Assembly: GCA_016209585.1 (NCBI GenBank)
Contig: JACQVU010000180.1
Coordinates: forward strand, 1 to 33,344
Length of the DNA: 33,344 nt
Reading direction: 5' to 3'
DNA from: Planctomycetota bacterium
GTDB taxonomy: Bacteria; Planctomycetota; UBA8742; JACQVU01
Positions 2,949 to 26,160 of this stretch are shown here, piece after piece. The notes under the pieces were generated by a model. The model did not search any database. It saw only the letters and a list, made by a program, of their open reading frames with translations, and had not been told where the DNA came from. How positions within the stretch are numbered: position 1 is the stretch's first letter; each line of letters starts with the position of its first letter. Position numbers and translations under genes: made by a program.

Positions 2949-4162
2949 CGCGCCGCCCCCGGCAGCCCGGCGGGATGCTGCGGGCGGGCTTTCAGCGCGC
3001 GAACGGCGGCGTCGATCCCCTCCAGCGTCAGTTCGAACATGGGGAAGACGTTGCCGATGGCCGCGACGGTGTAGTGATCCCAGTAGCGGGCCGGGTCGGG
3101 GTTGATCCAGGCCGCGCACTCGAAGTGGCGGCGCAACCGCTTGAGCCACTCAATGCCCGGGGTGCGGTTGTTCTCCCAGTAGTCAATGGCCCCGCCGGGC
3201 GAAGTCAGTTCGGTGTGCGCCATGCAGGCGTCGCCCACCAGCGCCAGTTTCACGTCGCGGTCGTTGTTCCGCAGAAGGTCGGCGGTGCGCACCCGCTGGC
3301 CGCGCTCGATGTCCGGGTAGACGTGGTCGTAGACACAGTTGTGGAAGTAGAAGTGCTGAAACGACTTGAAGTGCCGCGAGGAGTGCGCCGCCGAGAACAA
3401 CAGGCTCACCAGCCGCGTGTGAGGGGTCATCGAGCCGCCGGCGTCCATCAAGAGCAGCAGTTTCACGGTGTTGCGGCGAGATCGCTCGAACCGGATGTCG
3501 ATCTCCCCGCCGTTGCGGCACGTGCCGTCGATGGTGCCGGGCAGGTCCAACTCTTCTTCTCCTTCCCGCGCCAGGTTGCGCAGCGCGCGCAGCGCGAGCC
3601 GGATCTGCCGCGTGTCGAGCGTGATGTCGGCGCGGTAGTTCCGGAACCGCCGCTCCGCCGCCACCTTGACGGCGGAGCGGCTCATGGACTGCCCGCCCAC
3701 GCGAATGCCGGCCGGGTGCTCGCCGTACGCCCCGAAGGGCGAGCGCCCCCGCGTGCCCACCCACCGGTCGCCGCCGTCGTGCCGCTCGGTCTGCTCTTTC
3801 AACCGCTTCTCGAACAACTCGCGCAGGCGGTCGAAGTCCACCTGGTCGGGAAAGAGCCTCCGCAGACGCTCGTGGTCCAGGTCGAGCAGCCGGATGAGGT
3901 TGGCGGGGTCTTGCAGCCACTCCCAGAACTGCTCTTTGATCTCGGCCGGCGCTTCCACGCCCTCGAAGTGCTCGGCGAACGCCAGATCGAAGTGGTCGAA
4001 CAGCGCCTCGCTCTTCACCAGCAGCGCCCGTGTCAACTGGTAGAAGTGCGCCAGCGACGCCGTTCCCAGCCCGCGGCTGAGCGCGTCCTGCAACGCCAGC
4101 CACTCCGTCGGCGACACCCGCACGCCGTGGCGGCGGAGCGTGTAGAAGAAGTCGAGGAACAT
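2945..4162 (-). CDS. CoxE-like von Willebrand factor A (VWA) domain protein
   Basis: 405-aa ORF. It begins MFLDFFYTLRRHGVRVSPTEWLALQDAL..., contains ...RRFRNYRADITLD..., and carries the VWA/MIDAS strand KLLLLMDAGGSM with later LALVGDACM. This is the usual CoxE/COG3552-type layout. Confidence 0.8.
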   Translation of the reverse strand: MFLDFFYTLRRHGVRVSPTEWLALQDALSRGLGTASLAHFYQLTRALLVKSEALFDHFDLAFAEHFEGVEAPAEIKEQFWEWLQDPANLIRLLDLDHERLRRLFPDQVDFDRLRELFEKRLKEQTERHDGGDRWVGTRGRSPFGAYGEHPAGIRVGGQSMSRSAVKVAAERRFRNYRADITLDTRQIRLALRALRNLAREGEEELDLPGTIDGTCRNGGEIDIRFERSRRNTVKLLLLMDAGGSMTPHTRLVSLLFSAAHSSRHFKSFQHFYFHNCVYDHVYPDIERGQRVRTADLLRNNDRDVKLALVGDACMAHTELTSPGGAIDYWENNRTPGIEWLKRLRRHFECAAWINPDPARYWDHYTVAAIGNVFPMFELTLEGIDAAVRALKARPQHPAGLPGAAR

Positions 4163-4178
4163 CGGCGGGACGCTGACG

Positions 4179-4541
4179 CTACCCGCGCACCGTCTTCTCG
4201 ATGGCGTTCTTCGCGGCGCAGAAGACGATCTTCGGATGGTGCTGGCGGGCCTCCTCCTCCGTCATCAGCGCGAAGGAGATCACGATCAGTTGATCGCCCG
4301 GTGTCGCCAGGCGGGCGGCGGCGCCGTTGAGACAGACCTGCCCGCCGCCCGGTGTTCCGGGGAAGGTGTAGGTCTCGAAGCGCGCGCCGGTGTTCTTGTT
4401 CACCACCAGCACTTTCTCGCCGGGCAGGATGTCGGAGGCCTCCAGCAGATTGGTGTCGATGGTGATCGACCCGGTGTAGTGCAGGTTGGCCTCGGTGACC
4501 ACCGCGTTGTGGATCTTCGACTTGAACATCTCACGCATCAT
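4179..4541 (-). CDS. panD: Aspartate 1-decarboxylase proenzyme
   Basis: MMREMFKSKIHNAVVTEANLHYTGSITID... aligns along its length with E. coli PanD ([29 protein letters not shown]), including the Gly24-Ser25 self-cleavage site. A GGAGG Shine-Dalgarno lies 6 nt upstream of ATG 4541. Confidence 0.95.
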   Translation of the reverse strand: MMREMFKSKIHNAVVTEANLHYTGSITIDTNLLEASDILPGEKVLVVNKNTGARFETYTFPGTPGGGQVCLNGAAARLATPGDQLIVISFALMTEEEARQHHPKIVFCAAKNAIEKTVRG

Positions 4542-5397
4542 ACGGAACCTCCCCCGCGCCCGGGCTGAGGCAGGCGTTGTCGATGAGCCGCGTGGCGCCG
4601 AAGCGCGCGGCGACCGCCAGCAGGGCTTTCCTTTCGATGCTGGGCGCCTCCCTCAGGGTGTCCACGTTCACCAGTTGCACGTAGTCAATGCGTGCCGTTT
4701 CACTTGATTCTATGACCCCCCGGACCGCCCGGCAAATGGTTTCGGAAGAACGTTCGCCCTCCCGCGCCAGGGCCGCGCCGGCCAGCAGCGCGCGCCGGAG
4801 CACGGGAGCGGCGGCGCGCTCGGCCGGCGTCAGGTAGACGTTGCGGGAACTCATCGCCAAGCCGTCCGCTTCGCGCACGATGGGCATCACCCGCACCGTC
4901 ACGGGAAAGCACTGGTCGGCCACCATGCGCGCGATGATGGTCGCCTGCTGCGCGTCCTTCTGCCCGAAGTAGGCGGCGCACGGCCCGACGACGTGGAAGA
5001 GTTTCGCCACCACGGTGGTGACGCCGTCGAAGTGGCCGGGGCGCGACCTGCCGCACAATGTGTCTTGCAGGCCGGCCACCGAGACGGTGGTCGCGTACCC
5101 CGGCGGGTACATCTCCTCCACCGTGGGCGCGAAGAGCGCGTCAATGGGCACGGTGGCGCAGAGATCCCGGTCGCGCGCCAGCGGACGCGGGTACTTCTCG
5201 AAGTCCTCATGGGGGCCGAACTGGCGCGGGTTCACGAAGATGCTCGCCACCACGAAGTCGTTCTCCGCCCGCGCCGCGCGCATGAGCGAAAGGTGCCCCG
5301 CATGCAGCGCGCCCATGGTGGGAACGAAACCGACGCGCCCGCAGCCTCTGACGGCGGCGCGGACCTCGGCGATGGCGCGGAAAAGGAAGAGAGGCAT
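4531..5397 (-). CDS. panC: Pantoate--beta-alanine ligase
   Basis: Motifs VPTMGALHAGHLSL (HxGH), VASIFVNPRQFGPHEDF..YPR, GHFDGVTTVV.KLF and YFGQKDAQQ. I prefer ATG 5397 (MPLFLFRAI...) over 5454. The 3' end overlaps the panD start by 11 nt. Confidence 0.92.
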   Translation of the reverse strand: MPLFLFRAIAEVRAAVRGCGRVGFVPTMGALHAGHLSLMRAARAENDFVVASIFVNPRQFGPHEDFEKYPRPLARDRDLCATVPIDALFAPTVEEMYPPGYATTVSVAGLQDTLCGRSRPGHFDGVTTVVAKLFHVVGPCAAYFGQKDAQQATIIARMVADQCFPVTVRVMPIVREADGLAMSSRNVYLTPAERAAAPVLRRALLAGAALAREGERSSETICRAVRGVIESSETARIDYVQLVNVDTLREAPSIERKALLAVAARFGATRLIDNACLSPGAGEVPYDA

Positions 5398-5628
5398 GCG
5401 CGGAGGGCAGTGTACACCGAACGACGTGATGGCGATCATCGGATACGATATCATTCGGTGTCGGGCTTGGCGCGCATGCGCGTTCGGGTGTTCGGGTTCG
5501 GGGCTTTAGGGACACGGGAGCGCCCCTCCTTTCCCCCGAATTCCGCGGGGAATAGCGGATCCATGCACCGGCTGGCCGTTTTCACGGATAGGATGATGAG
5601 AGCGTTCAAGGGGTCCGGGTCTTCATCA

Positions 5629-7620
5629 ATGCCTATTCGCGCTCGGCCTTCCTTCCCATTGGCGCTGGTCGCCGGCGTGGCCTTGGCGGTCAGCCTCGTG
5701 GCGGGGCGCGCCCGGGCGGAGGAGATCGACCCGCCGGGCCGGCGGGTGTATGACGCCGCGGCGCCGCGGGTGGTGGTGGTGAAGGGGCCGACCCAACTGG
5801 GCGCCGGCATGGTCGTGGATCGCCGCGGGTTGATCCTCACCTGCCAGCATGTGATCCGCGCGCAACCCGGCGTGCAGGTGAAGTTCTGGCGGGATCGCGC
5901 CGCCGAGGGCGACGGCGGCTGGCACGCCGCCACGGTGGTGGCGGAGGACGAGCGGCGCGACTTGGCGCTCCTGTCGGCGGCTGACCCTCCGGCGGACCTC
6001 ACGGAACTGGTGTTCGGCGATTCGTCGCGCCTGTTCGTGCCGCAGGTGGTCTATGCCGTCGGCCACCCGCTGGGCAAGAGCCGGTGGAACCTGGCGGCGA
6101 CGTTCGTGAGTTCGCTGATCGTCGACTTTCCCGACACGTTCGCCATCGACCGGAAACTGGAGCACGGCTACTCCGGCGGTCCGCTGCTCTCGGAGCGTGG
6201 CGAGGTGGTGGGGGTGAACTCGTTCGTTCTGGCCGAGGCGCGGAGCACCTCCTACGCGCGCAGCGGCAACTCGGCGCGGGAGTTCGTGGCCGACTACCTG
6301 CGCGGTCTCAACCAGCGCCTGGGGAAACCGCGGCGCAACGGAGAGGGGTTCGAGATCCAGGCGCCCGCCGGCTGGGCCGAAGGAACCACCGGTCGCGTGG
6401 AGGTGGCTGAGGCCGGCCGGCAGGTGTTGTTCGCCCATTACGACCACACGGTGACGCCGCCGGTCAGCACGCTGACGGTGGAGGCGGCGCGCAAGAAGGC
6501 CGACGATCCCGTGGGGCTGGTGGCCGACGTTGAACAGGAGTTCTTCATCGCCCGCCTGCCCGGTTCACGGGTGGAGGTGCGCGACGACTTCGTGCTGCGC
6601 GGCCGGTCGGCGGTGGCGCTGCTGGGGGGCTACGACGGACCGGAGGGGCAGGGCCGGCGCAAGTTCCTGCGGGTGATCATCGATCTCGGCGACCGCGCGC
6701 ACGTCATCGCCTACGAGGCGCCGGCCGCGGTCTTCGACGACTTGTACAACGTGTTCCAGGACTCGGTGTACTCCTATCGCTGGCCGCAGGGGTCGCTGGA
6801 TTTCGCGACGCCGCGCGGGGCCGTTGATTGCCTGGTGCGCTACGCCGTGGAGGGCGACCGCGAGGCCTGGCTTTCCTGCTGGGACGTCGACGCCGCCGTT
6901 CGCCAGGCCGCGAAGGAAGAGAACATCGGCGCCTGGTCGGCCGAGGTCTGGGAGCAGCGCCGGCGCCTGGCGCGGGACGCGCTGCTCACCACGGCGTTCG
7001 AGCCGAACCGCGAGGCCGCGCGGCGCGGCGCGTTCCGCATCGGCGCCGTGGTCACCACCAAGGAGGAGGAGTCGGCCTGGGCCGAGGTCTTTCGCGCCGA
7101 CTCCGACCAGGAAGAGACCCCCATCCGTTTCGATTTGGTCCAGGGGAAGCAGGGGTGGCGCGTGGTGAACGCGGCCGAGGGACGCCGCGCCAAGCGCCAG
7201 GAATTCCGCACCGACAAGCCGGAACGGACGTTTGAGAGCCTCCTGGCCGCGCTCGCCGCCCACAACACGGAAGGCGCCGTGGCCTGCTTCCACCTGCCGG
7301 GCGTGGCGGCGCGCCGTCTCACGGCGCGCGGCGAACCGGCGACGCCCGAAGCCGTGGCGAAGGAAGAATCCCCGGCCGGACAGGACCTGCGCGCCACGCT
7401 CCTGCCCCGCGTCGCCGCCCTGCTGCCCTCGCGGTTGGAGCCGCTGGCGCCGGGCGGGAAGGGGGAGGCGGCGGGCGACGAGACGCGCCTCAGGTACGCC
7501 GTCGGCGCGCCGGGCGGCGAGCAAGGCGCGCCCGCCGGCGATGGTCGGGGGCCGGCGATGGAGGTCTGTTTCGCGCGCGTCGACGGCTCCTGGAAGATTG
7601 TTGAAGTCCGGTTCCCGTGA
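5629..7620 (+). CDS. Secreted trypsin-like (S1/HtrA-fold) serine protease with a long C-terminal extension
   Basis: A signal peptide MPIRARPSFPLALVAGVALAVSLVAGRARA-EE starts at ATG 5629. In-frame alternatives exist at 5476, 5563 and 5593. The catalytic triad context is LTCQHVI (His), RRDLALL (Asp) and EHGYSGGPLL (Ser). About 450 residues downstream include two NTF2/SnoaL-like-looking modules. The ORF-track start at 4993 is antisense to panC and is rejected. Confidence 0.75.
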   Translation: MPIRARPSFPLALVAGVALAVSLVAGRARAEEIDPPGRRVYDAAAPRVVVVKGPTQLGAGMVVDRRGLILTCQHVIRAQPGVQVKFWRDRAAEGDGGWHAATVVAEDERRDLALLSAADPPADLTELVFGDSSRLFVPQVVYAVGHPLGKSRWNLAATFVSSLIVDFPDTFAIDRKLEHGYSGGPLLSERGEVVGVNSFVLAEARSTSYARSGNSAREFVADYLRGLNQRLGKPRRNGEGFEIQAPAGWAEGTTGRVEVAEAGRQVLFAHYDHTVTPPVSTLTVEAARKKADDPVGLVADVEQEFFIARLPGSRVEVRDDFVLRGRSAVALLGGYDGPEGQGRRKFLRVIIDLGDRAHVIAYEAPAAVFDDLYNVFQDSVYSYRWPQGSLDFATPRGAVDCLVRYAVEGDREAWLSCWDVDAAVRQAAKEENIGAWSAEVWEQRRRLARDALLTTAFEPNREAARRGAFRIGAVVTTKEEESAWAEVFRADSDQEETPIRFDLVQGKQGWRVVNAAEGRRAKRQEFRTDKPERTFESLLAALAAHNTEGAVACFHLPGVAARRLTARGEPATPEAVAKEESPAGQDLRATLLPRVAALLPSRLEPLAPGGKGEAAGDETRLRYAVGAPGGEQGAPAGDGRGPAMEVCFARVDGSWKIVEVRFP

Positions 7621-7627
7621 GGGTGAT

Positions 7628-8182
7628 ATGGACACCGCCAAGATCGAGCGCGCGGTACGGATGATCCTCGAGGCGGTGGGAGAGGACCCGCAGCGGGAAG
7701 GATTGAAGGAGACGCCGCGGCGCGTGGCGAAGATGTACGAGGAGGTGTTCTCCGGTCTCGGCGCGGACGTCAACCGCCACTTCGAGGCCGTGTTCGCCGA
7801 GCCGTACGACGAAATGGTGATCCTCCGCGACATCCCCTTCCAGTCCTTCTGCGAGCACCACCTGTTGCCCTTCATCGGCCGGGCGCACGTGGCCTACGTG
7901 CCCCAGGGGCGGGTGATCGGCATCTCCAAACTGGCGCGCATCGTGCAGCATTTCGCCCGCCGGCCGCAGGTGCAGGAACGCCTCACCGACCAGGTGGCGA
8001 ACATCATCATGGAGAAACTGGAGCCTCGCGGCGTGGCCGTGGTCATGACGGCGGAGCATACCTGCATGACGCTCCGCGGCGTCAGGACTCCCGGTTGCAC
8101 CATGACCACCTCGTCGGTGCGGGGCATCTTCAAGGAGAATCTTGCCACGCGCGCCGAGGTCATGTCGCTCCTGCAACATTGA
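7628..8182 (+). CDS. folE: GTP cyclohydrolase I
   Basis: Starts at internal ATG 7628 of ORF 7232..8182. The sequence MDTAKIERAVRMILEAVGEDPQREGLKETPRRVAKMY...FQSFCEHHLLPF.G.AHVAY.P...V.G.SK.ARIV..FARRPQVQERLT...TAEHTCM..RGV is a near-textbook FolE. Confidence 0.95.
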   Translation: MDTAKIERAVRMILEAVGEDPQREGLKETPRRVAKMYEEVFSGLGADVNRHFEAVFAEPYDEMVILRDIPFQSFCEHHLLPFIGRAHVAYVPQGRVIGISKLARIVQHFARRPQVQERLTDQVANIIMEKLEPRGVAVVMTAEHTCMTLRGVRTPGCTMTTSSVRGIFKENLATRAEVMSLLQH

Positions 8183-8222
8183 CCGGCGGAGTGATCGCGC
8201 GGAGATTCCAAAAAAGCCCGCC

Positions 8223-11200
8223 GTGCGCCGGATAGACAACGCCCGGAACCTTCGCGCCCGTTTGCAGGCGGCCAAGGCCCACGCGGCCGAGCGCGCCCGC
8301 GCTCTGGCCGCCTCCGAACAGGTGCGCCGCGACCTGGAGACCGAGGCCGTCCGCCTGCGCCAGGCGCTGGACGCCCAGCACGGCGTGGCGCTGGACCTCG
8401 AAGCCCGCCTCGCCGACCTCACCCGGGAACTGGCCGGCCCCGTCGGCTCCGCCTGGCGCGCCCTGCGCGCCGGGCTGTTCAACCTCCGGGGCCGCGCCGT
8501 GGGGCGCTACCCGCCGGGCGCTCTCAGCCTCTCCGGCATGAAGCGCCATCCGGCGCGCGGGAGGGGCTGGCATCACGCCGAGGGGGCCGACCCCGAGATC
8601 ATCGTCGCCGGGCCTTTCGACCCCGGATGGACCGTGCTCGGCTTCACCGTGCAGGCCGACGCCGCCTGTTCGCTGGAACTGGTGGCGTTCAGCCCCGGCC
8701 GCGAAGCCCGCTGGGACGGCGGGCGGCTCTTCCCGGGCATGACCTGGCGCCAGTACGCGCTGGAGTTGCCGGACGGCGTGACCGACCTCGGCGTCCGGTT
8801 CCGTGGTTGGCCGGGGGGCGTCTTCTTCGCCAACCACGTCGCGCGCCGCGCCACCTGGTGGACGTGCCGGCTGCTGTCCCGGTCCGACGACGGTCGCGCC
8901 CGCCGCGCGCGCGGCGACCTGCTCGACGCCGGCCTGGGGCTGTTGCTGCCCGGCGCGGCCGCGCGCTACGTGCGGGCCTTTTCCCCGCCACCGGTCCCGG
9001 ACGGTCCGGCCACGGCCGCGCGGGCGCGGTCGGCGCGACGCGCCGGCCAGAACGGCGAAGATCGGCCGGATCTCGTGGAGCCGGTCTTCCGGCCCCTGCG
9101 CGGGGTCGCCCGCCACCCGGACCGGCTGCGCTTCCCGTGGCGCGCCGACGACGCCGATCCCCAGATGGTCGCCAGCGGCCCCTTCCCGGCGGGATGGGTC
9201 CGCTTCACGTGCGAGATCGTCGCGGAAGTCCCCTCCTGGGCCGTGCTTTACGTCGACGCGGGGCCGGGGGTCTCGGAGGCGCGGACCGTGACGCTCGGCC
9301 GGGTGGACGCCGCGCCCACCACCCTGGTGCGGATCGGCTGGTTGCCGAAAGAGACGCGCGCGCTGCGCCTCGACCCGATGACCGAGCCGGGCGGCTTCGC
9401 CATCACGCGCTTCTCCGTCCGGCGCGTGGACGACGACGAAGGCCGCGCCGCGGCTCTGCGGGACATCGCGGAGATGGCGCCTTACGGCCGGTGGCGCCCG
9501 GACGCGCCGCTGGAACCCCTGCGCGACCCCAGGCTGCGGGCCAATCTCCCGCGGTACGACGAGGCGCTGTTCGCCACGCTCTCGGAGATCGAAGTCCTGC
9601 GGCGCGACCCGTACGTCATTTTCCGGCGCGAACGGGATCGGGAGATCCCCACGCGAGCGGAGGCCGCGCGGGCGGTGGCGCGGATGGCCGATCCGCCGCT
9701 GGTGTCGATCATTTTCCCGGTGTTCAACTGTCCGGCGGAGTACCTGACGGCGGCCATCAGGTCCATCCGCGGGCAACTCTATCCGAAGTGGGAACTCTGC
9801 GTGGCCGACGACGCCTCCACCGCGCCGCACGTGCGGCCGCTGCTGCTGGCGCAGGCCGCCGCGGACTCCCGCGTTCGGATCATGTGGCGCGAGCGGAACG
9901 GGAACATTTCGGCGGCGTCCAACACGGCGCTGGAAATGGCGCGCGGCGAGTTCGTGGCGCTGGTGGACAACGACGACCTCATCGAACCCGACGCCCTGCT
10001 GCTCCTCGTCCAGGCCGCGCGCGCCCGTCCCGATGTAGACATGTTGTATTCGGACGAAGACAAGGTCGATGAGGTGGGCTGGCGGTTCATGCCCTTCTTC
10101 AAGCCCGACTGGTCGCCCGACTACCTCCACTCCTGCATGTACACCTGCCACATGGCCATGTTCCGCGCCAACCTGGTCCGGGAGGTGGGTGGCTTCCGGT
10201 CGCGGTACGACGGCGCGCAAGACTGGGACCTGGCGCTGCGGGTCTCGCGCCTTGCGCGGCGCATCGCGCACGTTCCCCGCGTGCTCTACCACTGGCGCTC
10301 GCATGCCACCTCCATGGCCCGCGCCACGGAAACCAAGCCCCACGCCCATTTCGCGGCCCAGGCCGCCCTCCGCGACTGGCTCGCGGCCGGCGACGTCGCC
10401 GGCCGCGTGGAGACCGGCCCGCTGCCCTGCATGTTCCACGTGCGCTATGAGATCGTCGGCGGTCCGCTGGTGAGCATCGTGGTGCCCACCGCGGGCGCGG
10501 CGCGCGCCGTGCGCGGCAAGCAGACCGACCTGGTGGCCAACCTCATCGAGCGCGTGCTGGCCATCACCGAGTACCCGAACTACGAGATCATCGTCGTGGC
10601 CGACGGCGACCTCCGGGCCGAGACCCGCCGGCGTATCGACCACCAGCGGGTGCGCGTTCTCCCCTTCCGGGAGCCGAAGTTCAACTTCGCCCGGAAGTGC
10701 AACCTCGGCGCCCGCGCCGCCCGCGGCGACCACGTCCTCCTCCTGAACGACGACACCGAACCCATCAACGGCGACTGGCTCACGGCCCTCTTGGAGTTCT
10801 CCCAGCAGAAAGACAACGGCGCCGCCGGCGCCAAGTTGCTCTTCCCCGACGGCACCATCCAGCACGTGGGCGTGACGTTGCAGGGGCGGTTGCCGGGCCA
10901 CCCGTTCTACGGCATGCCGGGCGGTTCGTCGGGCCATTTCAACAGCATCGACGTGCCGCGGAATTACTCGGCCGTCACGGGCGCCTGTTTGATGACCAAG
11001 CGCTCGCTCTACGAGGAGATGGGCGGCCTCGACGAAGCCTTCCCCGTCAATTACAACGACGTCGACTTCTGCCTGCGCCTGCGCCGCCGCGGCCTTTCCG
11101 TGGTCTACGTGCCCTACGCGACGCTCTACCACTTCGAGGCCCAGAGCCGCCGCGACGGCTCGGTGGCGGAGTGGGAGAAACAACTTTTCCTTCAGCGTTG

Positions 11201-11279
11201 GGGCGCGGAGTACGAGATCGACCCCTTCTTCAACCCCAATCTCAACCCCCGCTACGGCGACTTCCGGATGGGAATCTGA
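8223..11279 (+). CDS. Large multidomain glycosyltransferase with two GT2 catalytic domains
   Basis: The frame is open from TTG 8142, which overlaps folE. I tentatively start at GTG 8223, and this start is uncertain. The N-terminus is an Ala/Arg/Leu heptad-like stretch, followed by two copies of a ~110-aa module. GT2 domain 1 has PLVSIIFPVFNCPAEYL...VADDAST...LVDNDDL. GT2 domain 2 has PLVSIVVPTAG...IIVVADGD...LLLNDDTEP...GAKLLFPDGTIQHVGV. Confidence 0.8.
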   Translation: MRRIDNARNLRARLQAAKAHAAERARALAASEQVRRDLETEAVRLRQALDAQHGVALDLEARLADLTRELAGPVGSAWRALRAGLFNLRGRAVGRYPPGALSLSGMKRHPARGRGWHHAEGADPEIIVAGPFDPGWTVLGFTVQADAACSLELVAFSPGREARWDGGRLFPGMTWRQYALELPDGVTDLGVRFRGWPGGVFFANHVARRATWWTCRLLSRSDDGRARRARGDLLDAGLGLLLPGAAARYVRAFSPPPVPDGPATAARARSARRAGQNGEDRPDLVEPVFRPLRGVARHPDRLRFPWRADDADPQMVASGPFPAGWVRFTCEIVAEVPSWAVLYVDAGPGVSEARTVTLGRVDAAPTTLVRIGWLPKETRALRLDPMTEPGGFAITRFSVRRVDDDEGRAAALRDIAEMAPYGRWRPDAPLEPLRDPRLRANLPRYDEALFATLSEIEVLRRDPYVIFRRERDREIPTRAEAARAVARMADPPLVSIIFPVFNCPAEYLTAAIRSIRGQLYPKWELCVADDASTAPHVRPLLLAQAAADSRVRIMWRERNGNISAASNTALEMARGEFVALVDNDDLIEPDALLLLVQAARARPDVDMLYSDEDKVDEVGWRFMPFFKPDWSPDYLHSCMYTCHMAMFRANLVREVGGFRSRYDGAQDWDLALRVSRLARRIAHVPRVLYHWRSHATSMARATETKPHAHFAAQAALRDWLAAGDVAGRVETGPLPCMFHVRYEIVGGPLVSIVVPTAGAARAVRGKQTDLVANLIERVLAITEYPNYEIIVVADGDLRAETRRRIDHQRVRVLPFREPKFNFARKCNLGARAARGDHVLLLNDDTEPINGDWLTALLEFSQQKDNGAAGAKLLFPDGTIQHVGVTLQGRLPGHPFYGMPGGSSGHFNSIDVPRNYSAVTGACLMTKRSLYEEMGGLDEAFPVNYNDVDFCLRLRRRGLSVVYVPYATLYHFEAQSRRDGSVAEWEKQLFLQRWGAEYEIDPFFNPNLNPRYGDFRMGI

Positions 11280-11328
11280 TACAGAACATGGAGAATACGG
11301 GCGATATTTGAGGCACAGCGGAAGGAAC

Positions 11329-12585
11329 ATGATCCGACTGATTGAAGCGCTCAATTTCCGCTGCCTGCGCTATGTGAGCCGGCCGTTGGATCGGTTTCAC
11401 ATGCTCGTCGGACCGAACGCGAGCGGCAAGACGACCTTTCTCGACGTGATCGCGTTCCTCGGCGACATGGTTTCCGAGGGCCTGGACTACGCCTTGTCCC
11501 AGCGGGCCGAGTCGTTCGGAGATCTGCTTTTCGGGCGACAGGGGGACTGGTTCGAACTTGCCGTCGAAGTCGCGATCCCCAGCGATCGAGGACGTGAACT
11601 TCCTCCCGAGAAATTCGATACGATTCGGTACGAAGTTCGCATCGGCGTTACAGATCGCATCACCGAACCGGGCATCCTTCTGGAGAAGGTATGGTTGAAG
11701 CGTTGGAAACCGCCCGCGCCGCGTCCGCGCGCGATGTTCCCGCTGGAGCCTGACGCCCCCGCCTCTCTTGTTTCTCCAAAGGGTTCCGGGCGCCAGACGG
11801 TCCTTACAAAGAGCGGGGAGGGGGGCGACAATTTCTATAGCGAGGTCCGGATGGCCAAGCAAAAGGGGTGGTTCCCTTCGATCCGGCTTGGTCCGCGGAA
11901 ATCGGCGCTTGCCACCTTGCCCGACGATGAATCGAAGTTCCCCGTTTCCACATGGTTGAAGGGCTTTCTCACCACGGGCATTCAGCGGTGTGTGCTGAAC
12001 AGTCTGCTCATTCGGCGCGCGAGCCTTCCGGAAAAGAAAAGGGGGTTCAAGCCGGACGGCTCGAACCTTCCGTGGGTGATCGCGGAACTGGCGAAGCGCC
12101 GACCGGACAAATACGCCCAGTGGATTTCCCATTTGCGCACGGCGCTTCCAGACATCGAGACAATCAAGACGGTGGAACAGGAAGACGACAAGCGCCGCCA
12201 TCTGGTCGTTCGGTACAATGGGGGGCTGGAAGTGCCCTCCTGGATGGCTTCGGACGGCACGTTGCGCATGCTCGCGTTGACCCTTCCCGCGTATGTGCCC
12301 GAGTTCCGGGGTGTTTATCTGGTCGAAGAGCCGGAAAACGGCCTGCATCCGCTGGCGGTGGAGGTGGTTTCCCAGTCGCTTTCGTCGGTGTATGGAGCGC
12401 AGGTGTTGGTGGCGTCGCACTCCCCCGTCATTCTCAGTCTCATGACGGCCAAACAGGTGCTCTGCTTCCAGAAGGGCGCGTCCGGCGCGACCGACATCGT
12501 GGCCGGCACCGAACATCCCGCGCTCCGTGACTGGAAAGCGGATCCCAATCTCGGCACGATGTTCGCTTCCGGAGTCCTCGGATGA
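11329..12585 (+). CDS. ABC/SMC-like AAA ATPase (AAA_21/AAA_15 type), candidate sensor/motor of a two-gene module
   Basis: ATG 11329 is preceded by GGAAGGA. Walker A is LVGPNASGKTT. The ABC-signature-like motif is MASDGTLRML, Walker B/D-loop is VYLVEEPENGLHP, and the H-loop is LVASHSPV. About 270 residues are inserted between Walker A and the signature motif, as in AriA, AbiLi and PtuA-type ATPases. G+C is lower than in the flanks. Confidence 0.85.
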   Translation: MIRLIEALNFRCLRYVSRPLDRFHMLVGPNASGKTTFLDVIAFLGDMVSEGLDYALSQRAESFGDLLFGRQGDWFELAVEVAIPSDRGRELPPEKFDTIRYEVRIGVTDRITEPGILLEKVWLKRWKPPAPRPRAMFPLEPDAPASLVSPKGSGRQTVLTKSGEGGDNFYSEVRMAKQKGWFPSIRLGPRKSALATLPDDESKFPVSTWLKGFLTTGIQRCVLNSLLIRRASLPEKKRGFKPDGSNLPWVIAELAKRRPDKYAQWISHLRTALPDIETIKTVEQEDDKRRHLVVRYNGGLEVPSWMASDGTLRMLALTLPAYVPEFRGVYLVEEPENGLHPLAVEVVSQSLSSVYGAQVLVASHSPVILSLMTAKQVLCFQKGASGATDIVAGTEHPALRDWKADPNLGTMFASGVLG

Positions 12586-13217
12586 ACGGCACGACGCCAG
12601 TCCGGGATCTGGTCGTGCTCACGGCGTGCAAGAATGCGCAGTTCGCGATTCGGGGTCTGCTCATGCGGCGCCATTCGCCGGGCTTGCGGGCTATCGGGGA
12701 ACCGGGTTTTCTCGTTCACCCGGAACGCGATCCCGGCGTTCTCCGAAGCGGCCATGATCTCCTTCGTTCTTCCGCGAAGCAGTTCCACCATGCGCTCGTT
12801 GTCATGGACCGCGAGGGAAGCGGTGAAATGAAACTTGGCCGCGAAGAAATGGAGCAAGAAATCGAGAAACGCCTGGAAGCCAACGGGTGGGGAAATCGTG
12901 CCGCCGCCGTGGTGATCCAGCCCGAACTCGAATCGTGGGTCTGGAGCGACTCTCCTCACGTTCCAGAGATTCTCGGATGGGCGGCTCGACGCCCGCCGCT
13001 CGCAACCTGGCTTCGAGAAAACTCATGGATTGCGCCGCCATCTTCAAAGCCTGCTCGCCCAAAAGAGGCCTTGGAAAACGTCCTCATGACTACTGGAACG
13101 TCTCGTTCTTCCAGTATTTACGAATCGCTCGCGAAAAACGTGAGTCTCTCTCGCTGCGTCGATCCGGCGTTCAAGAAACTGAAGGAGACTCTCCAGCGGT
13201 GGTTTCCTGGGCAGTAG
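12582..13217 (+). CDS. Uncharacterised 211-aa protein coupled to the ATPase; possible Toprim-like effector (DUF4435/RloB/DUF4276 architectural class)
   Basis: The ATG overlaps the ATPase stop (ATGA, 12582..12585). The alternating strand/helix pattern carries acidic motifs: DLVVLTACKNAQFAIRGLL, HPERDPG, HALVVMDREGSG, VVIQPELESWVW. The C-terminus reads SLSRCVDPAFKKLKETLQRWF. I recognise no family with confidence. G+C is low, like its partner. Confidence 0.7.
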   Translation: MNGTTPVRDLVVLTACKNAQFAIRGLLMRRHSPGLRAIGEPGFLVHPERDPGVLRSGHDLLRSSAKQFHHALVVMDREGSGEMKLGREEMEQEIEKRLEANGWGNRAAAVVIQPELESWVWSDSPHVPEILGWAARRPPLATWLRENSWIAPPSSKPARPKEALENVLMTTGTSRSSSIYESLAKNVSLSRCVDPAFKKLKETLQRWFPGQ

Positions 13218-13479
13218 CATAGTGGCAAAGACGTGGCGGCCGGACGCGCCAGCCGAAAACGCCGGTCGAATTGGCGGGCACGGACTGCGGGACGGTGAAG
13301 CCGTGGCTGTGGCGGATGAAGACCCTGCTGCGCCAGAGCCGGACTGAAGGCGGCGTTCGAGAATTGCGAATGGCACACCGTGTTTCCGAACCCCAGCCTG
13401 CGAGACCTCAAGCGGCCCATCCTGCCGGCGGTCGCGTGAGGCGTCCAGGAGCGATCTGCACCCATGACCGACGCCCGGC

Positions 13480-13508
13480 CTGACACGCGCGGCTGAATCG
13501 GGTACACT
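13480..13508 (+). promoter_or_regulatory. Candidate sigma70-type promoter for the STAS gene
   Basis: CTGACA (13480..13485), a 17-nt spacer, then TACACT (13503..13508), lying 35 nt upstream of ATG 13543. This is a pattern match only. Confidence 0.3.
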
Positions 13509-13542
13509 CCCTGGGAGCAGGAAGACCAACCCCGCGCGCCCG

Positions 13543-13908
13543 ATGGCCAAGTTCCAGTTTTCCACCGAGTCCAACGGCGACGTCACCGTCGTCTACCTCC
13601 AGTCGCCGCGGCTGGACGAAAGCCACGCCGGCGAACTGGCCTATGAGTTGAACAAGACCGCCGAGAAGGAGTTTCAACCGAAGATCCTGATCAACATGAA
13701 GGACGTGACCTACATCTCATCGGCCATCATCGGGAAACTGGCGGCGTTCCAGAAGAAGATGAACCAGGACAAGGGCACGCTGAAGTTCTGCTCCGTCTCG
13801 TCGGCGGTGATGAAGGTGTTCCAGGTGACCCGCATGGACAAGATCTTCACGATCTACGGCGACGCCGTCGGCGCCATGAACGCCTTCCGCGCGGGGAAGG
13901 GCAAGTAG
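13543..13908 (+). CDS. STAS-domain protein (anti-sigma-factor antagonist, SpoIIAA/RsbV-like)
   Basis: 121 aa. The sequence GDVTVVYLQSPRLDESHAGELAYEL...ILINMKDVTYISSAIIGKLAAF....KGTLKFCSVSSAVMKVFQVTRMDKIF.IY has the classic STAS topology, with the phosphorylatable Ser context (ISSAIIG). Confidence 0.85.
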   Translation: MAKFQFSTESNGDVTVVYLQSPRLDESHAGELAYELNKTAEKEFQPKILINMKDVTYISSAIIGKLAAFQKKMNQDKGTLKFCSVSSAVMKVFQVTRMDKIFTIYGDAVGAMNAFRAGKGK

Positions 13909-13911
13909 GGG

Positions 13912-13927
13912 CGGGGGTCCCCCCCCG
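13912..13927 (+). terminator. GC hairpin just after the STAS stop (possible terminator or attenuator; no U-tract)
   Basis: CGGGGG-tccc-CCCCCG forms a 6-bp stem with a 4-nt loop, 4 nt after TAG 13906..13908. No T-run follows, so any intrinsic-terminator function is doubtful. Confidence 0.2.
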
Positions 13928-13959
13928 GTAGAACGCGGCGCCGACGCCGCTTCCTCACC

Positions 13960-15039
13960 ATGTTGCACGCCGTGGTCATGGCCGGTGGCGCCGGCACCCG
14001 TTTCTGGCCGCAGAGCCGCGTGGCGCGGCCGAAGCAGTTCCTGCCCTTCGGCGCCGACGGCCGCACGCTGCTGGCCGCCACCGTGGAGCGCCTCTTGGGG
14101 GCGGCGCCGCTGGAGCGCATCCTGGTGGTCACGGGCGCGGCCCACGCCGGCCTCGCCCGCGCGCAACTGCCTGATCTTCCGGCGGACAATCTGATCGTGG
14201 AGCCGGCCGGCCGCGACACCGCCCCCTGCGTCGGGCTGGCCGCGACCATCATCGCCCGGCGCGACCCGGACGGCGTGGTGGCCGTCTTCCCCGCCGACCA
14301 CTTCATCGAGCCGGCGGAAGACTTCGTCCGCGCCGTGCTCTTCGCGGCCGACGTCGCCCACCAGAGCGGCGGCATCGTCACCTTCGGCGTCCGCCCCGCC
14401 GGCCCGGCCACGGGGTACGGCTACATCCATGCCGGAAAGACGCTGGACGAGCGCGGCGGAGAGATCCTGCGCGAGGTTCTGGGCTTCGAGGAGAAACCCG
14501 ACCTGGAGTCCGCCCGGCGCTACGTCGAATCCGGCGAGTACTACTGGAACAGCGGCATGTTCGTCTTCACGGCGCGCGCCATGCTCACGGCCCTCGCGGA
14601 ACATGTGCCCGACATCGCCGCGCACCTCGCCGCCGTGGGGCGCGCGCTGGGAACGCCCGCCGAAGCCGAGACGCTGGAGCGTGAGTTCCTCGCCTGCCGG
14701 CGCATCTCCCTGGACTACGCCGTGATGGAGCACGCCCGCGACATTCGCGCCATCGTCTCCCGCTTCCGCTGGGACGACGTCGGCGCGTGGGACGCCCTCG
14801 CCCGCTTCCAGGCTCCCGACGCCGAAGGCAACGTGGCCGCCGGCGAACGGGTGCTGCACCGCGCCCGCGGCTGCACCGTGGTCTCCGAGGGCGGCCTCGT
14901 CGCCCTCGTGGGCGTCGAAAACCTCGTCGTCGTCCGCACCCCCGACGCCACGCTGGTCGTCCACCGCGACGCCGTTCAGGACACGAAGAAGGTGGTCGAC
15001 GCCCTCAAGGCCGACCCGCGCTTCGCCAAGTACCTGTAA
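13960..15039 (+). CDS. manC: Mannose-1-phosphate guanylyltransferase (GDP-mannose pyrophosphorylase)
   Basis: MLHAVVMAGGAGTRFWPQSRVARPKQFL (the GGxGTRxWPxSR signature), EPAGRDTAPC, FPADHFI, TFGVRP..PATGYGYI, FEEKPD and YYWNSGMFVF. Confidence 0.9.
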   Translation: MLHAVVMAGGAGTRFWPQSRVARPKQFLPFGADGRTLLAATVERLLGAAPLERILVVTGAAHAGLARAQLPDLPADNLIVEPAGRDTAPCVGLAATIIARRDPDGVVAVFPADHFIEPAEDFVRAVLFAADVAHQSGGIVTFGVRPAGPATGYGYIHAGKTLDERGGEILREVLGFEEKPDLESARRYVESGEYYWNSGMFVFTARAMLTALAEHVPDIAAHLAAVGRALGTPAEAETLEREFLACRRISLDYAVMEHARDIRAIVSRFRWDDVGAWDALARFQAPDAEGNVAAGERVLHRARGCTVVSEGGLVALVGVENLVVVRTPDATLVVHRDAVQDTKKVVDALKADPRFAKYL

Positions 15040-23143: not shown

Positions 23144-23749
23144 ATGACCGACATCATGAAGGAACTGGAACACGGCCTGCTGAAGGAGAAACTTCCCACC
23201 TTCTCCGTGGGCGACACGGTGGAGGTGCACGTGAACATCAAGGAGGGCGACAAGAACCGCGTGCAGAAGTTCGTGGGCACCGTCATCCGGTACAAGGGCG
23301 GCGGCCTGCGGCGCACCTTCACCGTGCGGCGGCTGGTGCAGGGCGAGGGCGTGGAGCGCATCTTCCCCGTCCATTCGCCGGTGGTGGCCGACGTCGTGGT
23401 GCTGCGGCGCGGCGCCGTGCGGCGCGCCAAACTGTACTACCTGCGTGACCGCGTCGGCAAGGCCACCCGCGTGCGCGATCTCGTCGGCGGCGAGTCCGAA
23501 GAGACCGAGGTGAAGGAAAAGAAGGAACACAAGCGCGGCAAGAAGGCCAAGGCCGCCCGCGCCGCCCGGCGCGAAGCCGCCGCGGCCGCCGTGGCCCAGA
23601 AGGTCGGCGAACCGACAGCCTCCCCCGCCACGGCGCACGCGTCGAACGCCCCGGCTCCAGCCGCGGCCGCGGCTGAGGCTGCCGGAGGCGAGGGCGCGCC
23701 GGCGGCCGCCTCCACCCCGGCCCCCGCGCCGGCTGGCGCCGGCGCCTGA
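23144..23749 (+). CDS. rplS: 50S ribosomal protein L19 with a ~88-aa Lys/Ala/Pro-rich C-terminal extension
   Basis: The core, LPTFSVGDTVEVHVNIKEGDKNRVQKFVGTVI..KGGGLRRTFTVRR...GEGVERIFPVHSP.V....VLRRG.VRRAKLYYLRDRVGKA, is typical L19 and would normally end near residue 113. The ORF continues to residue 201. Confidence 0.93.
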   Translation: MTDIMKELEHGLLKEKLPTFSVGDTVEVHVNIKEGDKNRVQKFVGTVIRYKGGGLRRTFTVRRLVQGEGVERIFPVHSPVVADVVVLRRGAVRRAKLYYLRDRVGKATRVRDLVGGESEETEVKEKKEHKRGKKAKAARAARREAAAAAVAQKVGEPTASPATAHASNAPAPAAAAAEAAGGEGAPAAASTPAPAPAGAGA

Positions 23750-25429: not shown

Positions 25430-25677
25430 GCGGATCTCGGCTGGTGACGGTCGCCTTGCGCCGGTCGTCAGCCCGCGCCCGTGGCCGGGGAAGCCCCAGT
25501 GTACCCGCGCCGCGCGTGAGGCGCATTCGCGGTTTCGCGGCGCCCGCCGGGCGCAGCCGAATGTTCTACCGATGGAGCCTCAAAGGAGTATACTGCGCCA
25601 CTTCGCGGGCGAGCGCGGCGCCACGAGAACCGGAGCCGTCGGCCCCCGAGTCGCCCGCAAACCCCAGCCCCGCCCGT

Positions 25678-26160
25678 ATGCGCGCGCCTTACTCCCAAGC
25701 CCTCGGTATGGTTGAGACCCTGGGCCGCGTCGGCTCCACCGAGGCGGCTGACGCCATGACCAAGGCCGCCCAGGTGACCCTCATCGGCCGCGAGGAGGTC
25801 GGCGGCGGCTACGTCACCGTCCTGGTCCGCGGCGACGTCGGCGCCGTGCGCGCCGCCGTCGAGGCTGGGGAGCGCGCGGCCAAGGCCGTGGGCAAGGTGG
25901 TCAGCGTCCACGTCATCCCCAAGCCGCACGAACAGACCCACACCATTCTGCCGCTGCTCTCCCCCGCCGCCGACGGGCCGCCGCTCTCGTTCGCGCAACG
26001 GCTGCTGGCCGCCTACGGGCAACCCGACGCGGACTTTCCGGCGAAGGGCGCCGCGCCGCGCCCGGCGGGTGAACGCGCGGGCCGGCCGGCCGCGGTTTCG
26101 GTGGAGGGCGAGAAGCGGGCGAAATCGACCCCCCGTGGCCGCCGCACCAGCCGGAAGTGA
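25678..26160 (+). CDS. Bacterial microcompartment shell protein, BMC-H (Pfam BMC domain) with a ~70-aa basic/Pro-Ala-rich C-terminal tail
   Basis: Starts at internal ATG 25678 of ORF 25444..26160. [79 protein letters not shown] aligns nearly position-for-position with PduA/EutM/CcmK ([48 protein letters not shown]...A...G.V...HVIPRPH). The tail ends in [15 protein letters not shown]. Confidence 0.87.

Follow-up and report, generated by a model that had tools for sequence, protein, structure and literature searches.

Contig JACQVU010000180.1 of a Planctomycetota bacterium, analysed here over its whole length of 33,344 nucleotides (the window), harbors an islet of two genes that we identify with high confidence as a solo copy of the MAD3-MAD4 module, which corresponds to the PADLOC candidate system HEC-01. 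Both genes lie on the plus strand (11329..12585 and 12582..13217), are intact and contain neither frameshifts nor premature stops. They encode an ABC ATPase of 418 amino acids belonging to the MAD3 family and a Toprim-like protein of 211 amino acids belonging to the MAD4 family. The pair is already described as a family, with models in NCBIfam and PADLOC and with names in the defence literature, and it is found here without the remaining genes of the methylation-associated defence system (MADS). The interpretation that we consider likely as a whole is that of a horizontally acquired solo pair acting as an OLD-like, split and ATP-regulated nuclease against mobile DNA.

Identification of the larger protein rests on the NCBIfam equivalog model NF047739 (MAD3), which it matches with 486.9 bits (cut-off 420) over residues 1-417, aligned to positions 1-427 of the 427 in the model. 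Among the PADLOC models HEC-01A gave the best match (7.4e-41, residues 7-417), and mad3 was found with 2.1e-33. The Pfam families AAA_21 (89.9 bits, 4e-25) and AAA_15 (51.2 bits) were both above cut-off. The functional motifs quoted for this protein in an earlier note, made from the sequence alone, are all present: the Walker A motif G28-P-N-A-x-G-K34-x-T36 (K34-T-T36 in this copy), the ABC signature S308-D-G-T-L-R313, the Walker B motif with the catalytic glutamate E333-E-P-E-N-G-x-H-P341 (E333-E334) and the H-loop H364-S365. All four are invariant across 38 homologues. A structure model made with AlphaFold2 (AF2; predicted local distance difference test score, pLDDT, 81) has its closest folds in PtuA (of Septu and of a retron), GajA, the SMC head and the OLD protein of Thermus (Ts), with E values down to 1e-12; the closest solved structures are those of PtuA (8eea, 8ee4 and 9n6b; E ~1e-12). 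MAD3 belongs with the ABC ATPases of the PtuA/GajA/OLD/SMC-head type, and every catalytic motif in it is intact. The protein departs from consensus at 9 of 145 conserved columns, where the family median is 3, with all motifs retained.

The smaller protein, which the earlier note could assign to no family and which NCBI annotates as hypothetical, gave a full-length match to NCBIfam equivalog model NF047734 (MAD4), with 214.6 bits against a cut-off of 160 and residues 8-209 aligned to positions 1-206 of 206. The PADLOC models mad4 (1.1e-7) and HEC-01B (1.1e-6, 26.6 bits, residues 67-205) matched as well, the latter weakly. No Pfam family, DUF4276 (PF14103) included, was matched by this protein even at E<=1, and a profile search of the PDB sequences with the MAD4 alignment returned nothing meaningful. 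DUF4276 is weakly matched by 7 of 36 MAD4 relatives, the best at 5.5e-6. The window protein is a distant DUF4276 relative, in line with the description of Mad4 as a DUF4276/Toprim homologue (PMC12065111). At 52 conserved columns MAD4 is off consensus once, which equals the family median.

The AF2 model of MAD4 (pLDDT 90.3) has an alternating order of strands and helices and predicts a Toprim fold that corresponds to the nuclease region in OLD enzymes of class 2. It fits best to the Toprim-plus-helical C-terminal region in Xanthomonas OLD (6njv, 6njw and 6njx), with template modelling (TM) scores of 0.49-0.52, probability 1.0 and E ~3e-3; for 6njv, the single best hit, the TM score is 0.52 at an E value of only 2.5e-3. 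In an alignment of 191 relatives residues D76, G79, G81, P114, E115, W119, K156, P157 and K161 are invariant. Strand 68-76 leads into a DxD-type motif, D76-R-E78, in which D76 is shared by all 191 sequences and residue 78 is glutamate or aspartate in 176 of them. By their position in the predicted fold C16 (usually aspartate), D76, E78 and E115 are candidate metal-site residues.

The composition of the islet differs from that of its surroundings. The two genes have a G+C content of 0.60 and the interval 11280-13542 of 0.612, compared with 0.701 for the whole window; the lowest value in other non-overlapping windows of the same size is 0.673. Along the profile G+C is 0.58-0.64 at ~11000-14000 and ~0.70-0.77 in the remainder. 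The low-G+C islet claimed in the earlier note is thereby borne out, and its hand counts for four lines of 60 nt (31, 33, 43 and 50) are exact. Codon usage, also calculated, gave the same picture: the ATPase gene has a G+C at third codon positions (GC3) of 0.742 and the gene of the small protein one of 0.637, the lowest of the 26 genes in the window, the other 24 having 0.815-0.934. The codon-adaptation values of the two genes (0.51 and 0.40) are likewise the two lowest.

The left boundary of the islet is sharp. GC3 of the upstream glycosyltransferase gene holds at 0.92-0.96 as far as 11141, where the measured blocks of 50 codons end, and the drop in composition has its left edge in the plus-strand spacer of 49 nt (11280..11328) between the glycosyltransferase stop and the ATPase start. 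The STAS gene downstream (13543-13908) has a G+C content of only 0.587, yet its GC3 is 0.934; it is therefore native DNA outside the islet, and its low G+C is due to amino-acid content. The intervening spacer (13218..13542), with a near-native G+C of 0.68 and a site at 13480-13508 that resembles a promoter of the STAS gene, is probably host DNA. Since GC3 of both the glycosyltransferase and the STAS gene is native and the spacer is at 0.68, the foreign segment ends at ~13217; spanning ~11280-13217, it is essentially exactly two genes. GC3, codon usage and the sharp left boundary support a foreign origin, and the pair was very probably acquired horizontally. This agrees with the earlier suggestion of a horizontally acquired islet that sits among housekeeping and envelope genes without a mobility gene: the 33-kb window contains no tRNA, Rfam RNA, integrase, transposase or other mobility gene. 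At the islet no insertion scars were found, that is, no flanking direct or inverted repeats beyond matches of a size expected by chance. In a search for close relatives the best manC homologues were 53-54% identical and lay on contigs without shared synteny with the window. The exact MAD4 sequence was found only in this contig of a metagenome-assembled genome and in one read-assembly contig of 975 bp.

The two genes are joined by an ATGA start/stop overlap on the plus strand (12582..12585), which is read directly in the sequence as the earlier note had it, and which implies translational coupling of the ATPase and the small protein. The open reading frame (ORF) of the ATPase is 11308/11329..12585; the ATG at 11329 that gives 418 amino acids is also the start used by NCBI, and a Shine-Dalgarno-like GGAAGGA stands ahead of it at 11319-11325. 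No sigma-70-like promoter was found in 11280..11328 and no plus-strand terminator at the islet edges.

Relatives of the pair are part of MADS, an eight-gene operon of Pseudomonas aeruginosa SMC4386 in which defence requires mad2-4 and mad6-8, mad2 encoding a methyltransferase, and in which mad5 can be deleted only jointly with mad2 or mad3; its authors stated that MAD3 and MAD4 are 'not reliably detected in all systems' (bioRxiv 10.1101/2023.03.30.534895). The NCBIfam name for MAD5 is S subunit. Our NCBIfam scan took in all 26 likely genes of the window and found only MAD3 and MAD4; MAD1, MAD2 and MAD5-8 were not found. Neither a methyltransferase (MAD2) nor a specificity subunit (MAD5) flanks the pair, its neighbors being the GT2 glycosyltransferase and STAS genes with native codon usage, and no methyltransferase or other partner is encoded within 11 kb upstream and 20 kb downstream. 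In the MacSyFinder model of the MADS authors MAD6 (a kinase), MAD7 and MAD8 are mandatory within ~10 genes; since MAD6-8 are not in the window, the pair is no MADS system. A canonical MADS operon on a Piscinibacter plasmid (locus L090), in which MAD2-MAD8 all score above cut-off (MAD3 547.5 and MAD4 233.2 bits), has the same gene order, gene sizes and overlapping stop and start of the pair. The window proteins, however, are just 36% (MAD3) and 32% (MAD4) identical to those of L090. The window pair belongs to a sister subfamily of the MADS pairs, the members of which are mostly solo or embedded in other systems.

HEC-01 was introduced as a candidate system that pairs an ABC ATPase with a TOPRIM protein, embedded in helicase-methylase-ATPase systems and sharing the OLD metal site, and its authors expected such candidates outside helicase-methylase-ATPase loci too (bioRxiv 10.1101/2024.01.29.577857). 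The window pair shares with it the two-gene architecture, the OLD-like Toprim protein and the best ATPase match, to HEC-01A. It differs in that HEC-01 was defined from embedded copies whereas the window copy is solo, and in the weak match to HEC-01B.

The earlier note had compared the islet with PARIS, AbiL, Gabija and pairs of an ATPase with DUF4276, and the ATPase-plus-Toprim architecture supports this class. Like PARIS, a class 4 OLD-like system in which the AriA ABC ATPase acts with the DUF4435 Toprim protein AriB, the window pair has its ABC ATPase and Toprim effector divided over two adjacent genes; PARIS also is autonomous without a methylase, and its ATPase falls in the same AAA_15/21 clade (PMC11464382). 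In that paper on PARIS, 'MADS3-4' is grouped with AbiL among the ABC-ATPase/TOPRIM defence modules. In contrast, the AriA models cover only residues 267-370 (2.4e-26) and 1-44 (8e-15) of the window ATPase, and PARIS is often borne by phages or satellites whereas the window family was not found on viral contigs. PARIS membership was rejected, the AriA match being partial and DUF4435 having no match in the pair. With OLD and Gabija GajA (classes 1-2) the resemblance is structural: the MAD4 model is similar to the C-terminal Toprim region of Xanthomonas OLD, and the MAD3 model to the ATPase domains of GajA and Thermus OLD. Unlike these, the window system is made of two polypeptides rather than one, has no UvrD-like GajB partner and carries no acidic residue at the presumed Toprim glutamate position. 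PtuA of Septu and retrons provides the nearest structures to the window ATPase, but the partner of PtuA is the HNH nuclease PtuB and not a Toprim protein, and the window ATPase reaches 27 bits with the NCBIfam PtuA model, whose cut-off is 500. The models for AbiLi, GajA and PtuA match the window ATPase only in part. AbiL (AbiLi/AbiLii-RloB), Septu and Gabija were rejected on finding no RloB, HNH or UvrD match in the pair or its neighbors, and an AbiEii toxin reading of AAA_21 was rejected on match strength or the missing partner. As for the families that the earlier note had in view, AAA_21 and AAA_15 do match the ATPase, whereas DUF4435, RloB and DUF4276 have no match in the pair.

The family spans several phyla and is patchily distributed. 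A search with MAD4 gave 703 matches in clusters at 90% identity, the nearest 58-59% identical, and relatives fall into 1250 clusters at 50% identity (E<=1e-3). At least 502 of 185,579 species-representative genomes encode a MAD4 relative, in Planctomycetota, Desulfobacterota, Acidobacteriota, Chloroflexota, Bacillota, Omnitrophota and other phyla. The loci surveyed were the best 80, from 80 other genomes, with gene calls in the fetched DNA made as crude ORF calls. Wherever the DNA is present a MAD3 homologue is found directly upstream of MAD4 in all 80 genomes; the overlap of 4 nt is kept in 60 of 81 loci, and a further 17 have gaps of 0-17 nt. Among 57 well-flanked loci, with at least 2 kb on each side, 42 (~74%) are solo, i.e. 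have no DUF1156/DUF499 neighbor and no methyltransferase/BPTD_3080 neighbor. By this survey most copies in the subfamily of the window pair appear to be solo. Solo pairs have unrelated housekeeping genes beside them, for example gyrB, uvrC, FKBP, DauA and glmS. In five Planctomycetes loci (L025, L030, L064, L072 and L086) the solo pair is directly downstream of gyrB, at ~8.7-10.6 kb of each locus, and in three Desulfobacterota-like loci (L005, L012 and L015) the pair lies between uvrC and a gene of the isocitrate/isopropylmalate dehydrogenase family. These gyrB and uvrC positions indicate that within lineages solo pairs are inherited stably and vertically. On plasmids only distant relatives were found (25-36% identity), one of which is a canonical MADS operon.

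Embedded pairs occur in two contexts besides MADS. In ~10-13 loci the order is DUF1156 methylase, pair and DUF499 ATPase, together with a SNF2/NOV_C helicase, and in ~8 loci the pair accompanies a methyltransferase and a restriction endonuclease of the BPTD_3080 family. Examples of embedded pairs are L090 (14001-15982), L002 (8751-10633), L092 (8001-9892) and L029 (~8739-10624). Counting canonical MADS, there are three unrelated restriction-like systems in which the pair usually has the methyltransferase gene on one side and the next large subunit on the other; gene order in L008, L069 and L028 departs from this arrangement. In a simple neighbor-joining tree solo and embedded pairs are interleaved, and the pair of the window clusters there with a solo locus of Phycisphaeraceae and with Planctomycetes loci of the DUF1156/DUF499-embedded kind. 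Its ATPase is most similar to those of the embedded locus L092 (68% identity) and the solo locus L094 (66%). L092 also has an Abi_C-domain gene between its helicase and DUF1156 genes (3126-3962, 3959-7915), and its DUF1156 protein gives a weak Y1 transposase match. On a long-read metagenome contig (L004, 8747-10004) the MAD3 homologue and many neighbors are split into short ORFs and MAD4 is intact; assembly frameshifts are a more likely cause of the broken ORFs than pseudogene formation.

Judged by the two structure models, the pair can be viewed as an OLD-family nuclease that is divided between two polypeptides with coupled translation. MAD3 would dimerise head-to-head on ATP and bind MAD4, and ATP binding or hydrolysis would gate MAD4 as a metal-dependent Toprim nuclease. 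MAD4 could then cut nucleic acid of an invading phage or plasmid; alternatively the target could be host RNA or DNA, with cleavage leading to aborted infection. In embedded relatives, i.e. MADS, the DUF1156/DUF499 loci and those with a methyltransferase and a BPTD_3080 protein, the pair is part of the restriction arm. As no methyltransferase or partner is nearby, the window pair would have to sense invaders alone, as PARIS, Gabija and P2 Old do. For the solo pair the balance tips slightly towards a function in defence. The nuclease mechanism falls a little short of an even chance for this copy, in which confidence in an active nuclease is lowered because of Cys16.

Several observations weigh against the interpretation as a defence nuclease. 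Residue 16 of MAD4 (codon 12627-12629) is cysteine in the window, and among the 191 relatives it is aspartate in 179, cysteine in 7 and glycine in 5. It follows directly on strand 1, the site of the Toprim catalytic glutamate, and is not acidic in the window copy; its equivalence to the glutamate position was taken from topology and the literature. Residue 113 (codon 12918-12920) is glutamine, the only glutamine in the set, in which 153 of 191 sequences have aspartate. On these alignments the nuclease site of the window MAD4 may be weakened or altered. Furthermore, the MADS pair acts together with six further genes that are all absent from the window, and the HEC-01 representative expressed in E. 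coli gave no protection from any phage tested (bioRxiv 10.1101/2024.01.29.577857). When 110 immediate neighbors of solo pairs were compared with the PADLOC models there were almost no matches and no MADS matches, and no relative of the pair was found on IMG/VR viral contigs or in GenBank phage genomes. Since there is no enrichment beside defence genes and no viral copies were found, the support that guilt by association or defence islands would give is missing for solo pairs, and defence by them is putative. The partner search covered 33 kb of the genome, and a partner system may lie elsewhere. Among the loci surveyed non-Asp16 variants include both solo and embedded pairs (L057 and L062).

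The improbable though most serious alternative is that the pair is an orphan or an in trans accessory, either a remnant of a methyltransferase-based system of the DUF1156/DUF499 or a similar type or a servant of one encoded elsewhere, with no function alone. It would account for the requirement of the MADS pair for other MADS genes and for the lack of defence by HEC-01 on its own; moreover, the closest ATPase homologue (68%) and the tree neighbors L036 and L002 are Planctomycetes copies that sit between DUF1156 and DUF499, and relaxed constraint could explain D16C and D113Q in MAD4 and the divergence of MAD3 (9 columns, median 3). Decay is, however, hard to reconcile with a solo state in ~74% of well-flanked loci from many phyla with genes that are intact, coupled and conserved. 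In the window itself both genes are free of frameshifts and premature stops, MAD4 is off consensus at a single conserved column, and the sharp boundaries are met by neighbors with native codon usage and no pseudogene remains of a larger system. A selfish addiction module, in which the ATPase restrains a nuclease toxin and the pair is kept by post-segregational killing, is considerably less probable still. The Pfam name of AAA_21 ('putative AbiEii toxin') hints at it, the pair is small, mobile, patchy and of foreign composition, and in MADS removal of mad5 reveals a MAD3-dependent lethality. Yet no member of this subfamily was found on a plasmid or phage, mobility genes are absent from the window, and the conserved chromosomal positions, such as next to gyrB in five Planctomycetes loci, suggest stable inheritance. 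Addiction and defence can, moreover, both hold.

The remaining two alternatives are both very improbable. A role in housekeeping DNA repair would be in analogy to the ABC ATPase RecF and the Toprim protein RecR, with which the pair shares the domain logic of an SMC-like ATPase head and a Toprim protein, and weak N-terminal RecF and SMC_N matches do exist; the RecF match, though, spans the P-loop only and scores 27 bits where the cut-off is 172. Foreign codon usage, the patchy distribution (at least 502 of 185,579 species genomes) and the repeated embedding in restriction-like operons also speak against repair. The proposal of the earlier note, which ranked the islet as the strongest candidate for an undescribed defence-type system, could draw on the failure of any Pfam model to match the window MAD4 and on its hypothetical annotation. 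It is refuted by the curated NCBIfam and PADLOC models, as both proteins match MAD3/MAD4 and HEC-01A/B, the former PADLOC match being strong and the latter weak, and by the naming of the pair in three papers (bioRxiv 10.1101/2024.01.29.577857, PMC12065111 and PMC11464382). What stands of that proposal is the pair itself, an ABC/SMC-type ATPase with a Toprim-like partner according to the NCBIfam and Pfam matches and the AF2 folds; it is real but not novel. The solo MAD3-MAD4 defence pair remains the interpretation that we prefer.

The islet is preceded by panD, panC and genes for an HtrA-like protease, FolE and a GT2 glycosyltransferase of 1045 amino acids, in this order. It is followed by the STAS gene, manC, two histidine kinase genes, mntH, a flavin adenine dinucleotide (FAD) oxidase gene, trmD, rplS, nfo and genes for a Crp-like regulator, a bacterial microcompartment (BMC) shell protein, a radical S-adenosylmethionine (SAM) enzyme, RNase D and others. 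The glycosyltransferase (8142-11279) has two GT2 domains, at ~residues 510-730 and 775-1000; its N-terminal ~500 amino acids have no family match, and their coding stretch is very rich in G+C (0.76-0.77 at 8250-9500). In their longest forms the ORFs of the HtrA-like protease (4993-7620) and folE (7232-8182) overlap each other and their neighbors, panC on the other strand among them; the true starts of the protease and folE are probably later, because the domain matches begin at ~residues 239 and 131, respectively. The rplS ORF (23144-23749) encodes 201 amino acids, of which the L19 model covers residues 3-112 only, with a C-terminal extension of ~85 amino acids. The shell protein gene (25444-26160; 238 amino acids, CsoS1/EutM-like domain at residues 83-171) adjoins the genes of the Crp/Fnr-type regulator and the B12-type radical SAM enzyme.

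The comparison removes a false lead, in that curated models and literature already cover both genes that had seemed to form a novel system. At the same time the locus is a clean natural case of the pair without MADS, DUF1156/DUF499 or restriction partner, and the window copy presents a natural substitution at a predicted Toprim catalytic position. A speculative extension, which we regard as rather unlikely, is that solo pairs are autonomous, methylation-independent immune modules, that the repeated placement beside methyltransferase genes, mostly right downstream of them, in three unrelated restriction-like systems reflects a guard role, and that the Cys16 and Gly16 variants have a modified Toprim site or act non-catalytically. 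As a guard, the pair would be triggered by inhibition of the host system or by the appearance of invader cues, as PARIS is.

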